Shown here: positions 42,081 to 63,590 of the stretch, in pieces
Position numbering within the stretch: the first letter of the stretch is position 1
Layout of the letters: each line of letters starts with the position of its first letter
NCBI GenBank assembly: GCA_951813565.1
Contig: OX638351.1
Coordinates: 1,792,001-1,856,000 of the forward strand
Origin: an uncultured Poribacteria bacterium
GTDB taxonomy: Bacteria; Poribacteria; WGA-4E; WGA-3G
Direction: 5' to 3'
Length of the DNA: 64,000 nt
Translations under genes and position numbers: made by a program
Notes under the pieces: generated by a model
Told to the model about the DNA's origin: nothing
Seen by the model: only the letters and a program-made list of their open reading frames with translations
Databases searched by the model: none

Positions 42081-43548
42081 GGGTTGGAAACCCAATCCTT
42101 TAGGTTTGGGAGGAAAACCCGCCCTTGTGTGTTAGACCACCTATTTTGTCAAAACAAATGATTTTTTTGACAAAAAGTATCAAAAATGTTAGCATTATTA
42201 CTATCACGTTGGCAGACATGTTTAGCACTACCGCTTGGTAGTGTGTCTGCCTACCCGCTAAACAAGGGTTAAAGACGTGATACGTGATAGTCTATGAAAC
42301 GAACCTTTAAATATCGGGCATACCCGATGGTTGCTCAAGAACGCTGGTTGTTTGATGAGTTGAAGCACCAGAAAAAGTTGTATAACTATATGCTTCAGAT
42401 GCGTTCGCAGATGTGGGAGTATGGTAGTATTTCTGTGTCTATGTATGACCAGATCAATCACCTTGCGAAACTTCGTGAATCCAACTTGCACTATTCTGAA
42501 CATCCGCAGGATATGCAGGTGTCTACCATCAAACGCGTCAACGCTGCGCATCAAAACTTCTTTGGCAGATGCAAAGACCCGAAAGCGAAAAAGAAAGGTT
42601 CCCCAAAGTTTAAGCGTTCTGTCCGATCGGTGACGTGGAATTTGCGAAAACACAAACTCAAGACAGGTGAACGTGTCCGTCAAAATCCTATCCGTGGAAC
42701 AGGCGCGCGGCTGAACCGATTGAAAGTTCCGAAACTTGGTGAAGTCAAAATCCGTCAACACCGTCCGCTCATCGGAGACCCGAAAGAGGTCACGCTGAAA
42801 AAGACGGCGCGTGGCTGGTATTGCTTTATCGTTTGCGAAGTGCCTGATACGCTGAGATGTGTTCCGAAATCCGCTTGTGGTGTGGATGTCGGCACACACG
42901 ACTTTCTGACGACCTCTGATGGCGAAACGACACCGAACCCCCGATTTTACCGAACCGCTGAACGCAAACTTGCCAAACTTCAACGCGTCCTTTCTCGTAG
43001 ACAGCGGGGTAGCAACCGTTGGTATAAGGCACGCGTGGCATTGGCAAAACAATCCGATATTGTTGCCTGTCAACGTCTTGACTTTATCGCGAAAACGGCT
43101 TACTCTCTTTTCCATCACAAAGGCTTTGATGCCGTTGTTGCCGAGAAACTCAAACCGAGCAATATGATAAAGAATAGATACCTTGCTAAGTCCATCTCTG
43201 ACGCGGCTTGGGGCATGTTCTTTGACTGGTGCGATTGGGTTGCCAAACGCGATCGCAAACATTTCCATCAAGTGCCTCCACACCAAACAAGCCAAACTTG
43301 TTCGCAGTGTTGCCAAAAATCCAAAGTCAAACTGGGGTTGGCTCAACGTGTGTTCCATTGTCCATCTTGTGGCTTGAAACTTGACCGCGACCACAACGCG
43401 GCTTTGAATATCTTACACAGGGCAGCTTGTGCCCTTCGTGGAGAGGTATGGGATACCATCCTCTATGAAACGAGAAACCCGTTATTACAACAGGCTTGTT
43501 GGGGTTAACCTCTTAACAAGCCCAAGTCTTTAGGCTTGGGGACTTGAC
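42081..43548 (+). mobile_element. IS200/IS605-family element, TnpB only (IS1341-like)
   Basis: Left hairpin CCCAATCCTTTAGGTTTGGG, right hairpin CCCAAGTCTTTAGGCTTGGG then GACTTGAC; exact left boundary uncertain. Confidence 0.85.
42294..43508 (+). CDS. tnpB: RNA-guided endonuclease TnpB
   Basis: MKRTFKYRAYP, GVDVG, VVAEKL, TSQTCSQC...CPSCG, DRDHNAALNIL; all three RuvC acidic residues present. Confidence 0.95.
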   Translation: MKRTFKYRAYPMVAQERWLFDELKHQKKLYNYMLQMRSQMWEYGSISVSMYDQINHLAKLRESNLHYSEHPQDMQVSTIKRVNAAHQNFFGRCKDPKAKKKGSPKFKRSVRSVTWNLRKHKLKTGERVRQNPIRGTGARLNRLKVPKLGEVKIRQHRPLIGDPKEVTLKKTARGWYCFIVCEVPDTLRCVPKSACGVDVGTHDFLTTSDGETTPNPRFYRTAERKLAKLQRVLSRRQRGSNRWYKARVALAKQSDIVACQRLDFIAKTAYSLFHHKGFDAVVAEKLKPSNMIKNRYLAKSISDAAWGMFFDWCDWVAKRDRKHFHQVPPHQTSQTCSQCCQKSKVKLGLAQRVFHCPSCGLKLDRDHNAALNILHRAACALRGEVWDTILYETRNPLLQQACWG

Positions 43549-51928: not shown

Positions 51929-53311
51929 GTCATAGCACCCACAGCGTAAACGCTGGGGCTTGTGCTTCGTAGCAGTTAGCGTTGTTCTCCGAAGAGAACA
52001 CCCGTCTCACATCTGCTCCACAAGGGGTTCTAAGCAGCCCCGAAGTATATTGATAGCAGCGTTTATATCTCTATCGTGGTGTGAACCACATTCATTGCAT
52101 ATCCACTGCCTATCTGCAAGAGAAAGATTATTGTTAGAATGTCCGCAGTTGCTACAAGGTTTTGTTGTAGCCATCCATTGCCCGACTTGATGGCATGCAC
52201 GATTATGTTTGAAACATTTGAACTTCAAAATCTCAACGAACTGGTAAAAGCCAAGATCGGAGACTTTACGTCCCCAGAGGCGTTTCATTCCATCAAGGTT
52301 GAGCGTTTCAGTGGCGATAATATCAAAACGTCTGCAGAGGTCAGTGGCAACTTTCCAATGCCAGTCTCTGCGTTGGCTGCTACTTTTGATATAGAGGCGT
52401 GTGAGTTGTCTGATAGCACGATACCAGTTGTTAGAACCTTTAACTTTGCGACTCACGCTTTTATTCAGTTTGCGAAGTTGTTTCAAAGATTGTTTATGGA
52501 ACTGCGGAGACTCTATTTTTTCACCAGTGCTGATTGTCAGAAAAGTTTTCAAACCGAAGTCTACGCCCACGCTCTCACCTGTTTGTTGCATAGGTTCGGT
52601 AGAAGTATTATCGGTGATGATATAGAGCCAGTATTCACCAGCATTATCACGAAGGATTTGGATATATCGGACATCTCCGTGCCAGTTGGGGTGTTGATGG
52701 AAAGAGAACCAAACACGATTGACTTTCAAAGATTTAGAATGCATGTCCCACGATTTGAAAGAGAGACGCACACGCCCATCTTCAAGTTTGTAGCCTGTTT
52801 GGAACTTAGCAGAACGGTATCTATGTTTTCGCTTCGGTTTCGGATGACCGCCTTGACCAGCAAAGAAACGTTGGTATGCGTCATGGATACGGATAATCGC
52901 AGCGTCAAGGGTGTCACGAGGTATCCAAGCCCAATGTTTATGGGTACGTTTCAGCAACTTGGTAAGATGCGGTTGCAACTTGTATCTACCAGCATATTTG
53001 CCGTAGATGCGGTAATATCGCTTTTCAAGACGCAGAAAGTGATTATGCACATCACACAAGTCATCAAGCATGTTGCCCAAACGTTTGTTCTTTGGGTGAT
53101 TGCGTCCCTTATATTTATAGGTTCGCATTACTTTACTCCAGCATTACTTCCGATTCCATTCGGTTTCGGTAGAGACCACCTCATGCGAGGTGGATGGAAT
53201 TCTCTACCTGTAATGCTGAGAATAGTATAACACACTTGGCACATAATTGTCAAGCAAAAAAAGAACGGGCATTCCTCCCCGACCTAAAGCAACGGGGTCT
53301 CCTGCCCGAAG
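51929..53311 (-). mobile_element. IS200/IS605-family element, TnpB only
   Basis: Minus strand: CAAT|CTTCGGGCAGGAGACCCCGTTGCTTTAGGTCGGGGAGG left end; CCCCAGCGTTTACGCTGTGGGTGCTATGAC right end. Confidence 0.85.
52007..53128 (-). CDS. tnpB: RNA-guided endonuclease TnpB
   Basis: GVDFGLKTF, IATETLN, CSNCG...CNECG, DRDINAAINIL. Confidence 0.95.
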   Translation of the reverse strand: MRTYKYKGRNHPKNKRLGNMLDDLCDVHNHFLRLEKRYYRIYGKYAGRYKLQPHLTKLLKRTHKHWAWIPRDTLDAAIIRIHDAYQRFFAGQGGHPKPKRKHRYRSAKFQTGYKLEDGRVRLSFKSWDMHSKSLKVNRVWFSFHQHPNWHGDVRYIQILRDNAGEYWLYIITDNTSTEPMQQTGESVGVDFGLKTFLTISTGEKIESPQFHKQSLKQLRKLNKSVSRKVKGSNNWYRAIRQLTRLYIKSSSQRRDWHWKVATDLCRRFDIIATETLNLDGMKRLWGRKVSDLGFYQFVEILKFKCFKHNRACHQVGQWMATTKPCSNCGHSNNNLSLADRQWICNECGSHHDRDINAAINILRGCLEPLVEQM

Positions 53312-53327
53312 ATTGATGACGGATATA

Positions 53328-53485
53328 TTCCAGCACTCCAGCGGAGTGCCATGTCTATAGAAAACCCAATATCCAAACTCCCACACTCCAGCGGAGTGCT
53401 ATGTGTGATAAAATTACGGACCGCTCCGCTGGAGCGGAAACGCTGGAGCGGATAGCTGCTATAAACATATTGCTCCGCTGGAGCA
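53328..53485. repeat. REP-like cluster
   Basis: CACTCCAGCGGAGTG twice and GCTCCGCTGGAGC twice. Confidence 0.75.
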
Positions 53486-61400: not shown

Positions 61401-61757
61401 ATCCAATCTGAAGATGAGGCGACCGCAATTCCCGAACTCCGACGCGTCGTTGTTAGCTACGAAGAGAATGACAATCTCCATGTCGTTTGGGGCGAAACGC
61501 TTGATGAAGCACTCAGAGAAATGTTTGTAAGAAGAATAGGAGGGCAAACCGAACTCACGGCTACAGTTGATGGCACACTTGAAGCAACTGACCTCCCAGA
61601 AACCGCTACATCGTTGCGCGGGCTAATTGAGCAGGCAAATAACTATTATAATAGCGCACAACAAGCACAACGCAACGGTAACTGGACAGAATACGGACGC
61701 AATGTTGAACTCTTAGAGCAAACCTTGAAACAACTTGATGCAAACACGCAACAGTAA
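58497..61757 (+). CDS. UPF0182 family membrane protein
   Basis: DYLWF, DPIFDKDIAYYVF, IRLWD, DVDIDRY, YTHGYG, YIRNSVKVVVDAYDGTV, LLYVEPIY. Confidence 0.95.
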   Translation: MFQKDIIQTQGEKMDSRIKRYIITIAILAILAGIFTAWVNIYPDYLWFEMVEKINIYTKILTTKIFVGVVVGVVYLAILLVNIFIIHRFTPAHLSPAFMGGTEFTGGQTDTRKMIYGGLTLLAILFSILMGYSATDRWEVFLRYTHAENLNFQSATPIVVENNLNSDEITVPTLELEAKNIQVGDEVNVYIDGDEPITAQVEEVITRGIERAGAQNTIPVGLRLNTPVQIESGQKAYFTSLARDPIFDKDIAYYVFKMPMERYVIGTLFGIFLLVTIFAVIIYFFHGLITGETNELRFRPPFRVKAHLFTLVGLTLIFRGWNYRYVMFDLLHTSNDVVRGGGGYAAMNARYPVLWIMLVITGLCAAVFIISIFLRRNTFAFAGFIIFIIAGFVGQLYPKLIQTWRVEPNKQVLEQKYINYNIKATLHAYGLENNKVTEEEYPLTEKLSYADITSPENQPVINSIRLWDWRPIRRIFRQLQELRSQYDFYDVDIDRYTVNDTIQQVMLSARELNINELPDAVKNDWYKQTYTYTHGYGAVVSPVNEIENGNPNMYIRGLPPIEYESQWPDRFNTEPGPRIYYGERTDRYVIVHPERTELKLEFDYPQEGQQYVDYAYQGNGGVVLSSFWRKLVYMLKFNNEIKFVLPGEITSASKVLYERNIKKRIHKIAPFLRYDGDPYAVIHEGKLVWIIDAYTITHRYPYSVSMQEFIQRRRQPGGVSQRGGEPWGNYIRNSVKVVVDAYDGTVNFYLIEQERDPIAECYRKIFPDLFKSFDEMPADLKAHIRYPTTMFLIQSRVYQDYHMKDPITFYAGEDQWEIGTELYDNTDTQIRQTSMPQQTSPLTPQRIVEKSLPSNVQPVEPYYVVLRLPGEENAEFMLMLPFTPRNKPNLIAWLAARCDLPQYGQLLVYRFPKQELVSGPMQVENFISQKPEISQQISLWNTQGTRVLRGNLLIMPMNNSLLYVEPIYIQSEDEATAIPELRRVVVSYEENDNLHVVWGETLDEALREMFVRRIGGQTELTATVDGTLEATDLPETATSLRGLIEQANNYYNSAQQAQRNGNWTEYGRNVELLEQTLKQLDANTQQ

Positions 61758-61817
61758 TCAAGGAATTTCATAATACGGCATGTAAAACCCTACGATTATA
61801 GAGAGGAGGTGAAACAG

Positions 61818-62063
61818 ATGTCTCTTGATTGGAAACCACGTCACAGGGATATGGTAATTGGCGGCATACCTTGGCTCGCAAGAATTTCTGATAAAGCTAA
61901 CGCAAAACTGCAAGGCATCATCGGTGAATACATATATCCGTGACCACAAGATAAAATGTTCCTGGAGGAACATAAGATATCTGCTGAGGATTTTGTTGAA
62001 ATAGTAAAAAACAATCCCTCAGATGATGAAATGATTGCTGCTATAAAGAAGTTGAGCAGTTAA
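61818..62063 (+). CDS. DUF5069-like small selenoprotein (UGA at 61941-61943)
   Basis: AGGAGGTG RBS; MSLDWKPRHRDMVIGGIPWLARISDKANAKLQGIIGEYIYP-U-PQDKMFLEEHKISAEDFVEIVKNNPSDDEMIAAIKKLSS; hairpin 61956-61973. Confidence 0.82.
61956..61973 (+). promoter_or_regulatory. Candidate bacterial SECIS hairpin
   Basis: ATGTTCC-TGGA-GGAACAT, 12 nt after the UGA. Confidence 0.75.
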
Positions 62064-62069
62064 CACAAT

Positions 62070-62420
62070 TCCGTCAAATCCGCATGCTTTAGCTTGTGGA
62101 TGTAGACGGGTAACCTGTGCTTGGGCATCACAGACTGCCAGCGAAATTGAAATAGGGGTAATCCCCAATCGTCCTAACCTTTCAAAGTCGGTGGATAGCG
62201 TCCATATCAAGCCAATGCAGCAAGGACTTATCGCGCGGCGTGCCTGGTAGAAAGGGCAGCTGTCCAATGGGTGGAACCAGAGCCAACCCACGACGTTGCG
62301 AAAAACATATTAAACAGGCGGCTAAGCCGCCTAAAGTGGAGCAGACGTAAGACGTTTCTTCGGAAACGCTGACTGCAAGGAAGCACAAGTCCCAGCCTTC
62401 AGGCTGTGGGTCACTATGAC
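62070..62420 (+). mobile_element. ORF-less IS200/IS605-type element carrying an omega-RNA-like right end
   Basis: Left hairpin TCCGCATGCTTTAGCTTGTGGA; 62335-62420 homologous to the right end of the 51929-53311 element, both ending CTATGAC. Confidence 0.8.
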
Positions 62421-62510
62421 TATCCGGTGGGCTAAAGGCCTACCGGGTATACAATTACAAAGTTATGAAAGTGTGTTTTTACGCGCACAGGAATCCATAG
62501 ACATCGCGCA

Positions 62511-63590
62511 TTGGAGATAGTTTCCGTGGAACTAAAAAAATTACGCGATCAAATTAATAGCATAGACGACCAACTTCTAAATCTTCTTCAAGAACGCGCA
62601 GAGATTTCCAAGAAGATAGGTTCCTTAAAAGCCGACACGGGGAAGGAAATTTATGTACCGCAGCGTGAGTACGAAATTCGTAATCGTCTAAAAACGCAGA
62701 ATCTCGGTATATATCCCAAAGATGCGCTTGACAAAATTTGGACTGAAATTTTTGCTGCTTCACGAGCCGTGCAAACCCCAAATAGGGTTGCTTTCCTCGG
62801 CCCATCAGGTAGTTTTGGACACACGGCAAGCCTATCGTTTTTCGGGCCTTTTGCTGAAATGATTCCGATCACTCCACAGATTGATATCTTTACTGAAGTT
62901 GAAACCGGACGCGCTGATTTTGGCGTGGTAGCAATTGAGAATTCAGTTTACGGCACTGTCCGGGACGTTTTAGAACGTTTTCAACACACATCTATGAAAA
63001 TCTGTGCAGAAATTTACCAACCTATCAGACACCATCTCATCTCAAAATTTCCGCTTCCTGAGGTTCAGCGTGTCTATTCCCACAGCCAACCCTTTGCCCA
63101 ATGTAGAATGTGGCTGAATAAATATATGAAATCAGTGGAACAGGTTGAAGTTGTCAGTACGTCTGATGCTGCACAACGCGCAGCAGATGAACCAAACGCT
63201 GCAGCAATCGCAAGTAAGCTGGCAAGTGAAATCTACGAGGTCCCTGTGATAGCGGATTCTATCATGGACGAACCGAATAACACGACTCGTTTTTTTATTA
63301 TTGGCGACCAAATAGTTGGCAAAAGTGGCAATGATTGCACATCTATCTTTTTTGCAATTAAAGACAAAGTCGGGGCATTGTATGAAATCTTGGGTGTCTT
63401 AGTAAAATATCAATTAAGCCTTAGTTATTTACAATCGCTTCCTTCGCGCACCGAACCGTGGGAATATATCTTTTTTGCTGATATTGATGGACATATTGAT
63501 GATGACAACGTTCATTCTGTCGTTGAACAGCTTGAGGATTTATGTCAGGATGTCAAAATCCTCGGTTCTTACCCACGCGGTGCAAAATAG
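62511..63590 (+). CDS. pheA: Chorismate mutase/prephenate dehydratase
   Basis: LRDQINSIDDQLL, VAFLGPSGSF, AIENS, YSHSQPFAQC, NTTRF, C-terminal ACT domain LGSYP. Confidence 0.95.
   Translation: MEIVSVELKKLRDQINSIDDQLLNLLQERAEISKKIGSLKADTGKEIYVPQREYEIRNRLKTQNLGIYPKDALDKIWTEIFAASRAVQTPNRVAFLGPSGSFGHTASLSFFGPFAEMIPITPQIDIFTEVETGRADFGVVAIENSVYGTVRDVLERFQHTSMKICAEIYQPIRHHLISKFPLPEVQRVYSHSQPFAQCRMWLNKYMKSVEQVEVVSTSDAAQRAADEPNAAAIASKLASEIYEVPVIADSIMDEPNNTTRFFIIGDQIVGKSGNDCTSIFFAIKDKVGALYEILGVLVKYQLSLSYLQSLPSRTEPWEYIFFADIDGHIDDDNVHSVVEQLEDLCQDVKILGSYPRGAK

Follow-up and report, generated by a model that had tools for sequence, protein, structure and literature searches.

Gene-less elements of the IS200/IS605 group that carry a guide RNA (omega-RNA) for TnpB are known; what is missing is an account of how such an RNA can be produced and matured in elements that have neither a tnpB gene nor a promoter. 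The closest described systems are the PATE-like (palindrome-associated transposable element) elements of Geobacillus stearothermophilus (Meers et al., PMC10055086) and the stand-alone omega-RNAs (PMC10691335). As the text of these papers describes them, they have shared subterminal hairpins and a transposon-adjacent motif (TAM) and lack an open reading frame (ORF). Many PATE-like elements carry an omega-RNA at their right end that serves in trans, with a TnpB encoded elsewhere, and TnpA is likewise supplied in trans (PMC10055086). Stand-alone omega-RNAs act in trans with effectors that are compatible with them, the guide being the sequence immediately beyond the right end (PMC10691335). IStrons, which combine a group I intron with an IS605/IS607 tnpB, form the other point of comparison; according to the text of the report on them (10.1101/2023.11.20.567912), they carry a large structured RNA by the left end, upstream of the omega-RNA and on one transcript with it, with possible competition of the two RNAs through pairing.

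Here we describe an element that resembles these systems in the respects just listed. It lies in a stretch of 64,000 nucleotides from an uncultured Poribacteria bacterium (the window; positions 1792001-1856000 of contig C1 of the source genome, G000), where 62065-62420 of the + strand is a 356-nt protein-free IS200/IS605-type element, hereafter E1854, with bounds taken from copy alignments. An ORF-less element bearing an omega-RNA is of a known kind; the new part is a conserved domain, which we call the leader. In contrast to PATE-like elements, the E1854 family adds this covarying domain of ~200 nt (~150 nt in E1854) and has no recognisable promoter. In contrast to IStrons, it lacks a group I signature and a tnpB in cis, its insertions are intergenic and its ends are unfit for group I splicing. 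No description of a leader-like domain was seen in the text on PATE, stand-alone omega-RNAs and IStrons (PMC10055086, PMC10691335, 10.1101/2023.11.20.567912), and no paper linking Poribacteria with TnpB, IS605 or IS200 was among the matches listed in a literature search.

The leader is a conserved and covarying fold on the omega-RNA strand

Folded alone, E1854 reached -122.6 kcal/mol, compared with -108.1 +/- 6.3 kcal/mol for shuffled sequences (z = -2.30; 4 of 100 shuffles were as good). Since this single-sequence fold gives moderate support, we put the weight on comparison with relatives. An alignment (A2) of 31 distinct sequences of the same type as E1854 (B-type, see below) from G000 and related genomes covered 488 columns, and RNAalifold predicted 74 pairs on it, 23 of them with double changes. 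The leader structure that we tested, partly drawn from this prediction, comprises 49 pairs in 10 helices, and 97.2% of its 1489 cells pair across the 31 sequences. When the leader partners were slid by 1-3 columns, pairing was 38-44%. Double changes occur in 12 of the 49 leader pairs (59 cells), a level reached by none of 500 shuffles, and the leader covariation score was 0.164 versus 0.095.

The hairpins H2, H4 and H5 differ among copies in both length and sequence, and hardly any change is seen in junctions and loops, GGUAGRAAGG and AAAAUGGGUGGAAACAGAGCC among them; in A2, conservation is higher in the leader loops and junctions than at the ends of the element. Several G-U pairs are fixed in the leader (in 30/31, 31/31, 26/31 and 27/31 sequences), where the other strand would give A-C. 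Therefore, the fold lies on the + strand, which is the strand of the omega-RNA. Two long-range stems are candidates, GUYG with CGAC and UGUG with CACA of the omega-RNA, the latter extending to 7 bp in E1854. Taken together, the ORF-less family carries a conserved, covarying and + strand-specific multi-helix leader between its left end and its omega-RNA part.

An initial annotation, made from the letters of the window, had described the interior of E1854 as rich in hairpins (GGGG-TAAT-CCCC, TGGA-TAGCG-TCCA, GGCGGC-TAA-GCCGCC), all of which are present in E1854. It had also proposed that this interior is not decayed tnpB and may hold an extra non-coding RNA or ribozyme domain. As for the first proposal, covariation is present and ~150 nt have no tnpB homology, which goes against a core made of degraded tnpA or tnpB; the claim went too far on the right side, where tnpB-derived sequence extends left to ~62266-62278. 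As for the second, a conserved and covarying fold is there, and the idea of a ribozyme or group I intron has no support, given the lack of an Rfam match, the intergenic insertions and the terminal C.

The leader is confined to ORF-less elements of one Poribacteria family

A profile hidden Markov model (HMM) of the leader matched only nine B-type and four C-type (see below) copies in G000. In species-representative genomes, a 24-letter motif of H3 was found at 66 loci, and the leader HMM matched all 58 that are titled Candidatus or uncultured Poribacteria and none of the eight from other taxa. Among 14 metagenome loci, five gave strong matches, one of which (L169) is the E1854 locus itself at 99.6% identity. 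A covariance model of the leader (R1; 165 positions, 41 pairs), used with stricter filters, placed the leader in 24 of 151 genomes of the Poribacteria phylum, all of one family: besides G000, 23 of the 99 other genomes of that family were positive (13/37 and 10/57 in two genera), compared with 0/51 in the other eight families.

Counting redundant ones, we collected 143 leader-bearing loci. A TnpB match was in the same locus in two of them, in both cases outside the leader-bearing element by position. The leader is joined to right ends of B-type, C-type and a third type (G139). Thus, the leader is found only in ORF-less elements and is fused to at least three right-end/omega-RNA types. In another genus, leader variants without H4 (L205 and L206 in genome G139, L208 in G084) keep the AAGUC/GACUU helix, show compensatory changes in H1, H2, H5b, H7 and H8, and have an extra piece of ~55 nt before the omega-RNA. 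The two G139 copies have different flanks and both stand behind TTATC.

E1854 has IS200/IS605-type ends behind a TTAAC motif

The initial annotation had called E1854 an ORF-less IS605-type element, and its ends, its TAM and its lack of an ORF all bear this out. Both the left and the right hairpin covary and both are shared with a full-length tnpB element of the genome (91% identity on the left, 73% on the right); the outer stem of the left hairpin, for instance, occurs as CCGTC/GACGG, CGGTGTC/GACACCG and CGTTC/GAACG. CTATGAC terminates all copies of the ~400-nt family to which E1854 belongs. The right flanks of the copies are unrelated to one another and the TAM stands on the 5' side, as for insertion without target duplication.

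The 31 copies contain open frames of 43-146 codons on either strand, but these shift between copies and none is open in register. Pfam, searched up to E 10, matched neither of two + strand frames.

The left boundary and the TAM had to be corrected. The element had been started at 62070 and CAAT proposed as a TAM before both E1854 and the full-length element at 51929-53311. In a search of G000 anchored on the left-end hairpin, conservation began at TTAGC (27) or TTAAC (10) in 37 of 37 left ends, and the choice between the two correlates fully with the type of left-end hairpin; E1854 has the TTAAC motif together with the TTAAC-type hairpin. The family left-end alignment thus places the start at 62065. 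Since ACAATT of E1854 aligns with ACTATT, GCCATT, ACTGTT or ACTCCC in homologs, CAAT is element sequence and occurs in E1854 only. For the full-length element, the conserved block of its four copies likewise goes 4-5 bases further out, from T-CATC-AAT, and reaches 53320, not 53311. A boundary after ACAA, considered from a TACAA|TATCCGG match in a distant relative (L084), was dropped given the same alignment of ACAATT with element sequence of the homologs.

The right part is an omega-RNA scaffold with a vestige of tnpB

The last ~145-155 bases of E1854 are homologous to the 3' end of tnpB and the right end of the TnpB elements of the genome. By blastn with short words, 62278-62420 is 73% identical to a full-length element of the genome; this homology lies on the tnpB strand and ends at the element boundary, which is the position of an omega-RNA. 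As annotated before, 62335-62420 can be aligned to 51929-52010 read in reverse complement, the two elements share the terminal CTATGAC, and the stems differ by compensatory changes (CGTTTC-TTCG-GAAACG vs GTTCTC-TTCG-GAGAAC; CAGCC-TTCA-GGCTG vs CAGCG-TTTA-CGCTG). In A2, the helices of this part show double changes in 4-14 of the 31 sequences per pair, with swaps such as GC in 14 sequences against AU in 13, or UA in 16 against AU in 14.

The C-terminal vestige of tnpB was also recovered, as a frame ...THDVAKNILNR within 62271-62372. In a blastp comparison of all + strand frames of at least 30 residues with two TnpBs, frames from sibling copies matched TnpB residues 333-370 weakly (E 0.035-0.1), which suggests that the tnpB-derived part starts near H8 (~62266-62278). 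Upstream of H8, ~150 nt remain unexplained by tnpB in E1854 and ~200 nt in complete copies. The leader as decayed tnpB was rejected: homology begins only at 62278, the two frames mentioned above have no Pfam match, and blastp otherwise gave scattered chance hits. A by-eye likeness of H7 and H8 to the zinc-finger coding region is unproven. The coordinates of all these features are collected in Table 1.

Table 1. Features of E1854 and of related elements; positions are those of the window unless G000 is named.
Feature	Position	Strand	Basis or remark
TAM TTAAC	62060-62064	+	start of conservation in 37/37 left ends
Whole ORF-less element (E1854)	62065-62420	+	end-to-end homology to 8 ~400-nt genome copies
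Left-end subterminal imperfect hairpin	62070-62110	+	CCGTC...GACGG around CCGCATGC-TTTA-GCTTGTGG
Remains of leader domain	62116-62265	+	leader HMM, covariation, covariance model R1; no tnpA/tnpB homology
H1	62124-62127 with 62136-62139	+	
H2	62141-62144 with 62169-62172; inner stem 62155-62158 with 62163-62166	+	
5' strand of candidate long-range stem	62187-62190	+	
H3	62191-62194 with 62202-62205	+	
Deletion point	62221-62222	+	~46 nt missing relative to the other 30 aligned copies
H7	62235-62245 with 62254-62263	+	
tnpB 3'-end vestige, also 5' part of omega-RNA scaffold	62266-62334	+	DNA homology from 62278; H8 and hairpin covary
H8	62268-62274 with 62283-62290	+	covaries
CGAC, 3' strand of candidate long-range stem	62291-62294	+	
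Hairpin GGCGGC-TAA-GCCGCC	62317-62331	+	covaries
Omega-RNA scaffold and right end	62335-62420	+	aligned with 51929-53311 element and 30 relatives
Stem GCAG with CUGC, enclosing CGUUUC-UUCG-GAAACG	62341-62344 with 62373-62376	+	
String GAAGCACAAG	inside 62335-62420	+	
Right-end hairpin	62390-62410	+	
Terminal CTATGAC	62414-62420	+	
Predicted guide, 3' flank TATCCGGTGGGCTAAAGGCC	62421-62440	+	by position only; within hairpin conserved upstream of pheA
Full-length tnpB-only element, other subfamily (tnpB 52007-53128)	51929-53320	-	four copies aligned with flanks
C-type copies	G000 925770-926340, 2324386-2324945, 2996541-2996936, 4013172-4013739		

E1854 is a diverged single-copy member of a larger ORF-less family

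Comparison of 62060-62430 with all of G000, the copy search that the initial annotation had named as a check, returned 67 blastn pieces. Eight other ~400-nt loci (B-type) match E1854 end to end (69-71% identity) or in two pieces around an insertion (74-81%). They are nearly identical to each other, ~70% identical to E1854 and sit in differing flanks. E1854, whose subtype is present once, is a diverged, single-copy member of the ~400-nt ORF-less family.

The commonest full-length tnpB family of the genome (e.g. G000 3892770-3894147) shares with B-type elements the left ~55 nt (88-91% identity) and the last ~145-150 nt (91% with copy B611, 73% with E1854), and the ~200 nt between the B-type ends have no DNA match to it. 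Compared with the tnpB-only elements of IS1341 type in G000 (51929-53320; 3892770-3894147), the E1854 family has a left-end hairpin that is 91% identical, a right end/omega-RNA that is 73-81% identical and the same CTATGAC, and the TTAAC/TTAGC TAM of the major IS1341-type family is that of the E1854 family as well. In place of the leader, the IS1341-type elements have a TTGACA-17-TATACT promoter, a 5' untranslated region (UTR) hairpin and a 370-aa tnpB.

Two further ORF-less types occur in G000. The A-type consists of five identical elements of ~403 nt (G000 2117817-2118212 and four more), which keep a TTGACA-17-TATATT promoter and have a structured interior that differs from the B-type; their right end is the most similar to that of E1854 (85%). 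The C-type (~570 nt, four copies) has TTATC as its TAM and ends that belong to a further tnpB family. With the B-type interior it has the first half and a piece further along in common, its leader being an enlarged version with a ~140-nt insertion, and one relative holds ~25 copies (loci L096-L150). In two genomes (L160 of a relative; G000 2994597-2996936), B-type and C-type elements stand in tandem within ~0.5-2 kb. All 14 mini-element insertions that were checked (nine B-type including E1854, five A-type) are intergenic. Two B-type copies (G000 247009-247421 and 3901688-3902100) lie at the stop codons of paralogous-looking genes, with similar upstream and differing downstream flanks; either an old duplication or homing to a site of similar sequence could explain this.

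The leader of E1854 carries a deletion

Contigs of the sibling copies diverge from E1854 at 62220-62222. With the ~46 nt deleted at this point, H5 is gone entirely, H4 is left without its 3' strand and the AAGUC/GACUU helix without its 5' strand. Both ends of the element and all its omega-RNA stems are preserved. The leader module is probably impaired in E1854.

The insertion follows a probable selenoprotein gene and appears young

E1854 lies directly behind a DUF5069 gene (61818-62063, 81 codons) with an in-frame TGA at 61941-61943. The Pfam match spans this TGA (E 1.9e-14), which is kept in 25 of 25 aligned relatives, and the product is likely a selenoprotein. The TAA of the TAM (62061-62063) is the stop codon of this gene. 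The initial annotation had set the element between the selenoprotein stop and a terminator hairpin at 62421-62449; the overlap with the stop codon fits the first half of that statement, but the hairpin has no T run, and nothing resembling a terminator came up when the + strand of 61700-62600 was scanned. Relatives also have the hairpin (62421-62452, ATCCGGTGGGC...GCCTACCGGGTAT) ahead of pheA, with stems that differ in sequence (GGTGGAC/GTCCACC, GGTAGG/CCTACC). It may serve pheA as a leader or have some other regulatory role, and it overlaps the predicted guide.

The DUF5069-pheA neighbourhood is kept, with a pheA match in 39 of 40 genomes of the genus, G000 included. None of the relatives' 29 loci has an element between the two genes. 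As the closest relative, with flanks 90-95% identical, is among them, the insertion appears young when set against the ~30% distance of E1854 from its siblings. In four of four DNA runs (two studies), the spanning contig contained the element and no contig joined across it. Four variable sites were seen: 62141 G>A turns a G-U into an A-U pair, 62166 C>T and 62260 C>T turn G-C into G-U pairs, and 62324 A>T falls in a loop. All four changes fit the fold and the three in helices keep pairing, in what is a small sample.

No sigma-70-like promoter was found in E1854, B611 or C4013. The stop codon within the TAM closes a co-directional ORF in five of the nine B-type copies, compared with one of the 30 other left ends (Fisher p 0.0012) and a genome baseline of 307 among 19,407 TTAAC/TTAGC sites. 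As E1854 has no promoter of its own, read-through from the DUF5069 gene is likely. ORF orientation was considered as a mark of read-through and rejected, as it does not separate leader-type from promoter-type elements.

A trans-loaded omega-RNA with a cis-acting leader is the best explanation

The machinery for an element without genes is present in G000: Y1 TnpA (PF01797) gave 10 matches above the cut-off, eight of them without stops, a tnpA+tnpB copy stands behind a TTAAC left end (4319238-4320882), and there are ~45 tnpB copies (51 tblastn pieces). Taking sequence comparison as the guide, we favour, with a probability of roughly 0.6, the reading in which E1854 is a protein-free IS200/IS605-type element with a predicted trans-loaded omega-RNA and a leader that acts in cis as its 5' module. 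E1854 would be moved in trans by the Y1 TnpA of the genome. The element would be read through from the DUF5069 gene and its right part transcribed as the omega-RNA, which a TTAAC-type TnpB made elsewhere may load, with a guide beginning TATCCGGTGGGC. After excision, TnpB would cut the emptied TTAAC+guide site and the copy would be restored by recombination, as in the homing model set out in the text of Meers et al. The leader would fold with the omega-RNA and stabilise it or help its release from host transcripts. This last step is the weakest one of the explanation. Since the leader is portable between right-end types, exclusive to ORF-less elements and located 5' of the omega-RNA, it would most likely serve a generic function in cis, such as stabilising, folding or releasing the guide RNA.

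The TnpB encoded at 52007-53128 had been proposed as the partner, with CAAT+guide as its target. Given that the TAM is TTAAC and not CAAT, and that the 5' flank motif of the 51929-53320 element differs, both proposals are probably wrong, and a TTAAC-type TnpB is the likelier partner, examples in G000 being that of the tnpA+tnpB copy and the one at 3892942-3894051.

Several observations weigh against the favoured reading. The 49-pair leader structure owes part of its pairs to RNAalifold on the very alignment used to test it, which favours it, and the two long-range stems, GUYG/CGAC and UGUG/CACA, are built on columns that are invariant or change on one side only, with GUYG not kept in G084. In E1854, the deletion cuts the AAGUC/GACUU helix that is kept in all 30 other aligned copies and in the H4-less variants of another genus; the R1 score is 108.5 bits, as compared with 180-199 bits for most complete copies; and the subtype is a singleton, its sole further match being the same locus from a metagenome. 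As for transcription, the stop-codon placement recurs in only two of 20 insertions with a stop-bearing TAM in relatives (ten further rows had another TAM, or none by pattern), and most elements that do have a promoter likewise point the same way as the ORF before them (13 versus 3 of 16). Because of these two counts, read-through, though likely for E1854, is only suggestive for the family. Finally, the spacers of relatives are too different for the exact empty site to be aligned, and no empty-site contig was found in the four DNA runs.

Some of these points would also be expected if E1854 were an inert fossil that inserted once, had its leader broken by the deletion and is no longer transcribed, mobile or used by TnpB, the conservation being that of the family. 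We regard this as a possible but doubtful account. A singleton subtype with ~46 nt deleted across three helices, no promoter found, an R1 score about half that of complete copies and a presence fixed in four of four runs with no empty allele found would all agree with it. However, the closest relative lacks the insertion, so the ~30% distance from the siblings would have been gained in an active lineage; both end hairpins and all omega-RNA stems are intact; and the three variable sites in helices still pair (a small sample, of four sites in all).

We think it unlikely that the leader is an autonomous functional RNA cargo (a self-cleaving ribozyme, a ligand switch gating the omega-RNA, or a regulatory or anti-defence RNA), with the omega-RNA just keeping the vehicle in the genome. 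Near-invariant loops and junctions with variable peripheral H2, H4 and H5 are the pattern of tertiary-structured RNAs, the leader is portable among three right-end types and was never found inside one element with tnpB, and H3 UCCA and UGUG could pair locally or with strings of the omega-RNA. Yet the leader has no Rfam family match even at E up to 10, is confined to one bacterial family and was not found outside IS605-type ends, which gives it no independent life, and no ligand, cleavage site or target is indicated. Equally tentative is a stronger version of the favoured reading, in which the leader would be a new structured-RNA class and the obligatory 5' module of promoter-less omega-RNA elements, self-processing or switch-like, that carves the TnpB guide from host read-through or gates it.

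The search for known RNA classes behind these statements covered the whole window at Rfam gathering scores, with no match. Among the models that the initial annotation had named as a check, group I intron and HEARO gave no match. At E up to 10, 61950-62550 gave chance-level matches of snoRNA and miRNA type only, below gathering scores, and four sibling loci gave two matches with E>5. An IscB-type omega-RNA (HEARO) was also rejected on a second ground, as the leader HMM finds nothing beside the single IscB-type gene of G000 (2829564-2830310, RRXRR domain, 519-codon frame). Resemblances seen by eye to motifs of the hammerhead, T-box, k-turn, sigma-54 or group I kind all break down at the defining letters.

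The pairing could instead act on single-stranded DNA during peel-and-paste transposition, for example by joining the left and right ends, and not in RNA. IS200/IS605 elements move as the top single strand with end hairpins acting as DNA, according to the text of PMC10055086; the folded strand is that same strand, and no promoter was found in the three copies scanned. We consider this improbable, as the end hairpins alone are known to be required, full-length elements with the same ends have no leader, the many fixed G-T pairs and conserved loops suit RNA better, and the leader lies directly against the omega-RNA part, with which it may pair.

A group I intron has U before its 5' splice site and G as its last base, whereas the 5' flank of E1854 ends in C and so does the element, and excising each of the 14 mini-elements never restores a long frame across the junction. 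An IStron-like arrangement, whose interior would be a group I or other self-splicing intron removing the element from host transcripts, is therefore rejected as very improbable, for although left end, structured RNA, omega-RNA and right end follow each other as in IStrons, ORF-less PATEs with IStron ends are reported in the text of 10.1101/2023.11.20.567912 and E1854 lies inside a probable operon transcript, Rfam has no group I or II intron match, whether with gathering scores or with E values up to 10, no reading frame is interrupted by any of the 14 insertions, and the end letters are C and C.

Implications of the leader

The leader, a fold of ~200 nt that is clearly under selection, takes the place of promoter, 5' UTR and tnpB in at least three lineages of elements within one Poribacteria family. 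Should it serve to stabilise, process or gate omega-RNAs, it would amount to a portable RNA module, relevant to TnpB biology and to guide-RNA design for compact editors. If the leader were a self-processing or switch-like RNA, gene-less transposons could parasitise host operons and any compatible TnpB. The natural deletion of E1854 could act as a natural loss-of-part control, and the corrected TAM (TTAAC) together with the corrected candidate partner alters the choice of reagents for bench tests.

Other TnpB-related features of the window

The protein encoded at 52007-53128 is a plain TnpB by Pfam (OrfB_IS605, 1.2e-22; Cas12f1-like TNB, 1.1e-18). Beside the left end of its element, 53321-53470 holds several short palindromic repeats (CACTCCGCTGGAGTG-like) that look like repetitive extragenic palindromes. 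A distant TnpB-like frame, 28.5% identical to the TnpB of the window, lies at 42300-43415 (G000 1834300-1835415).

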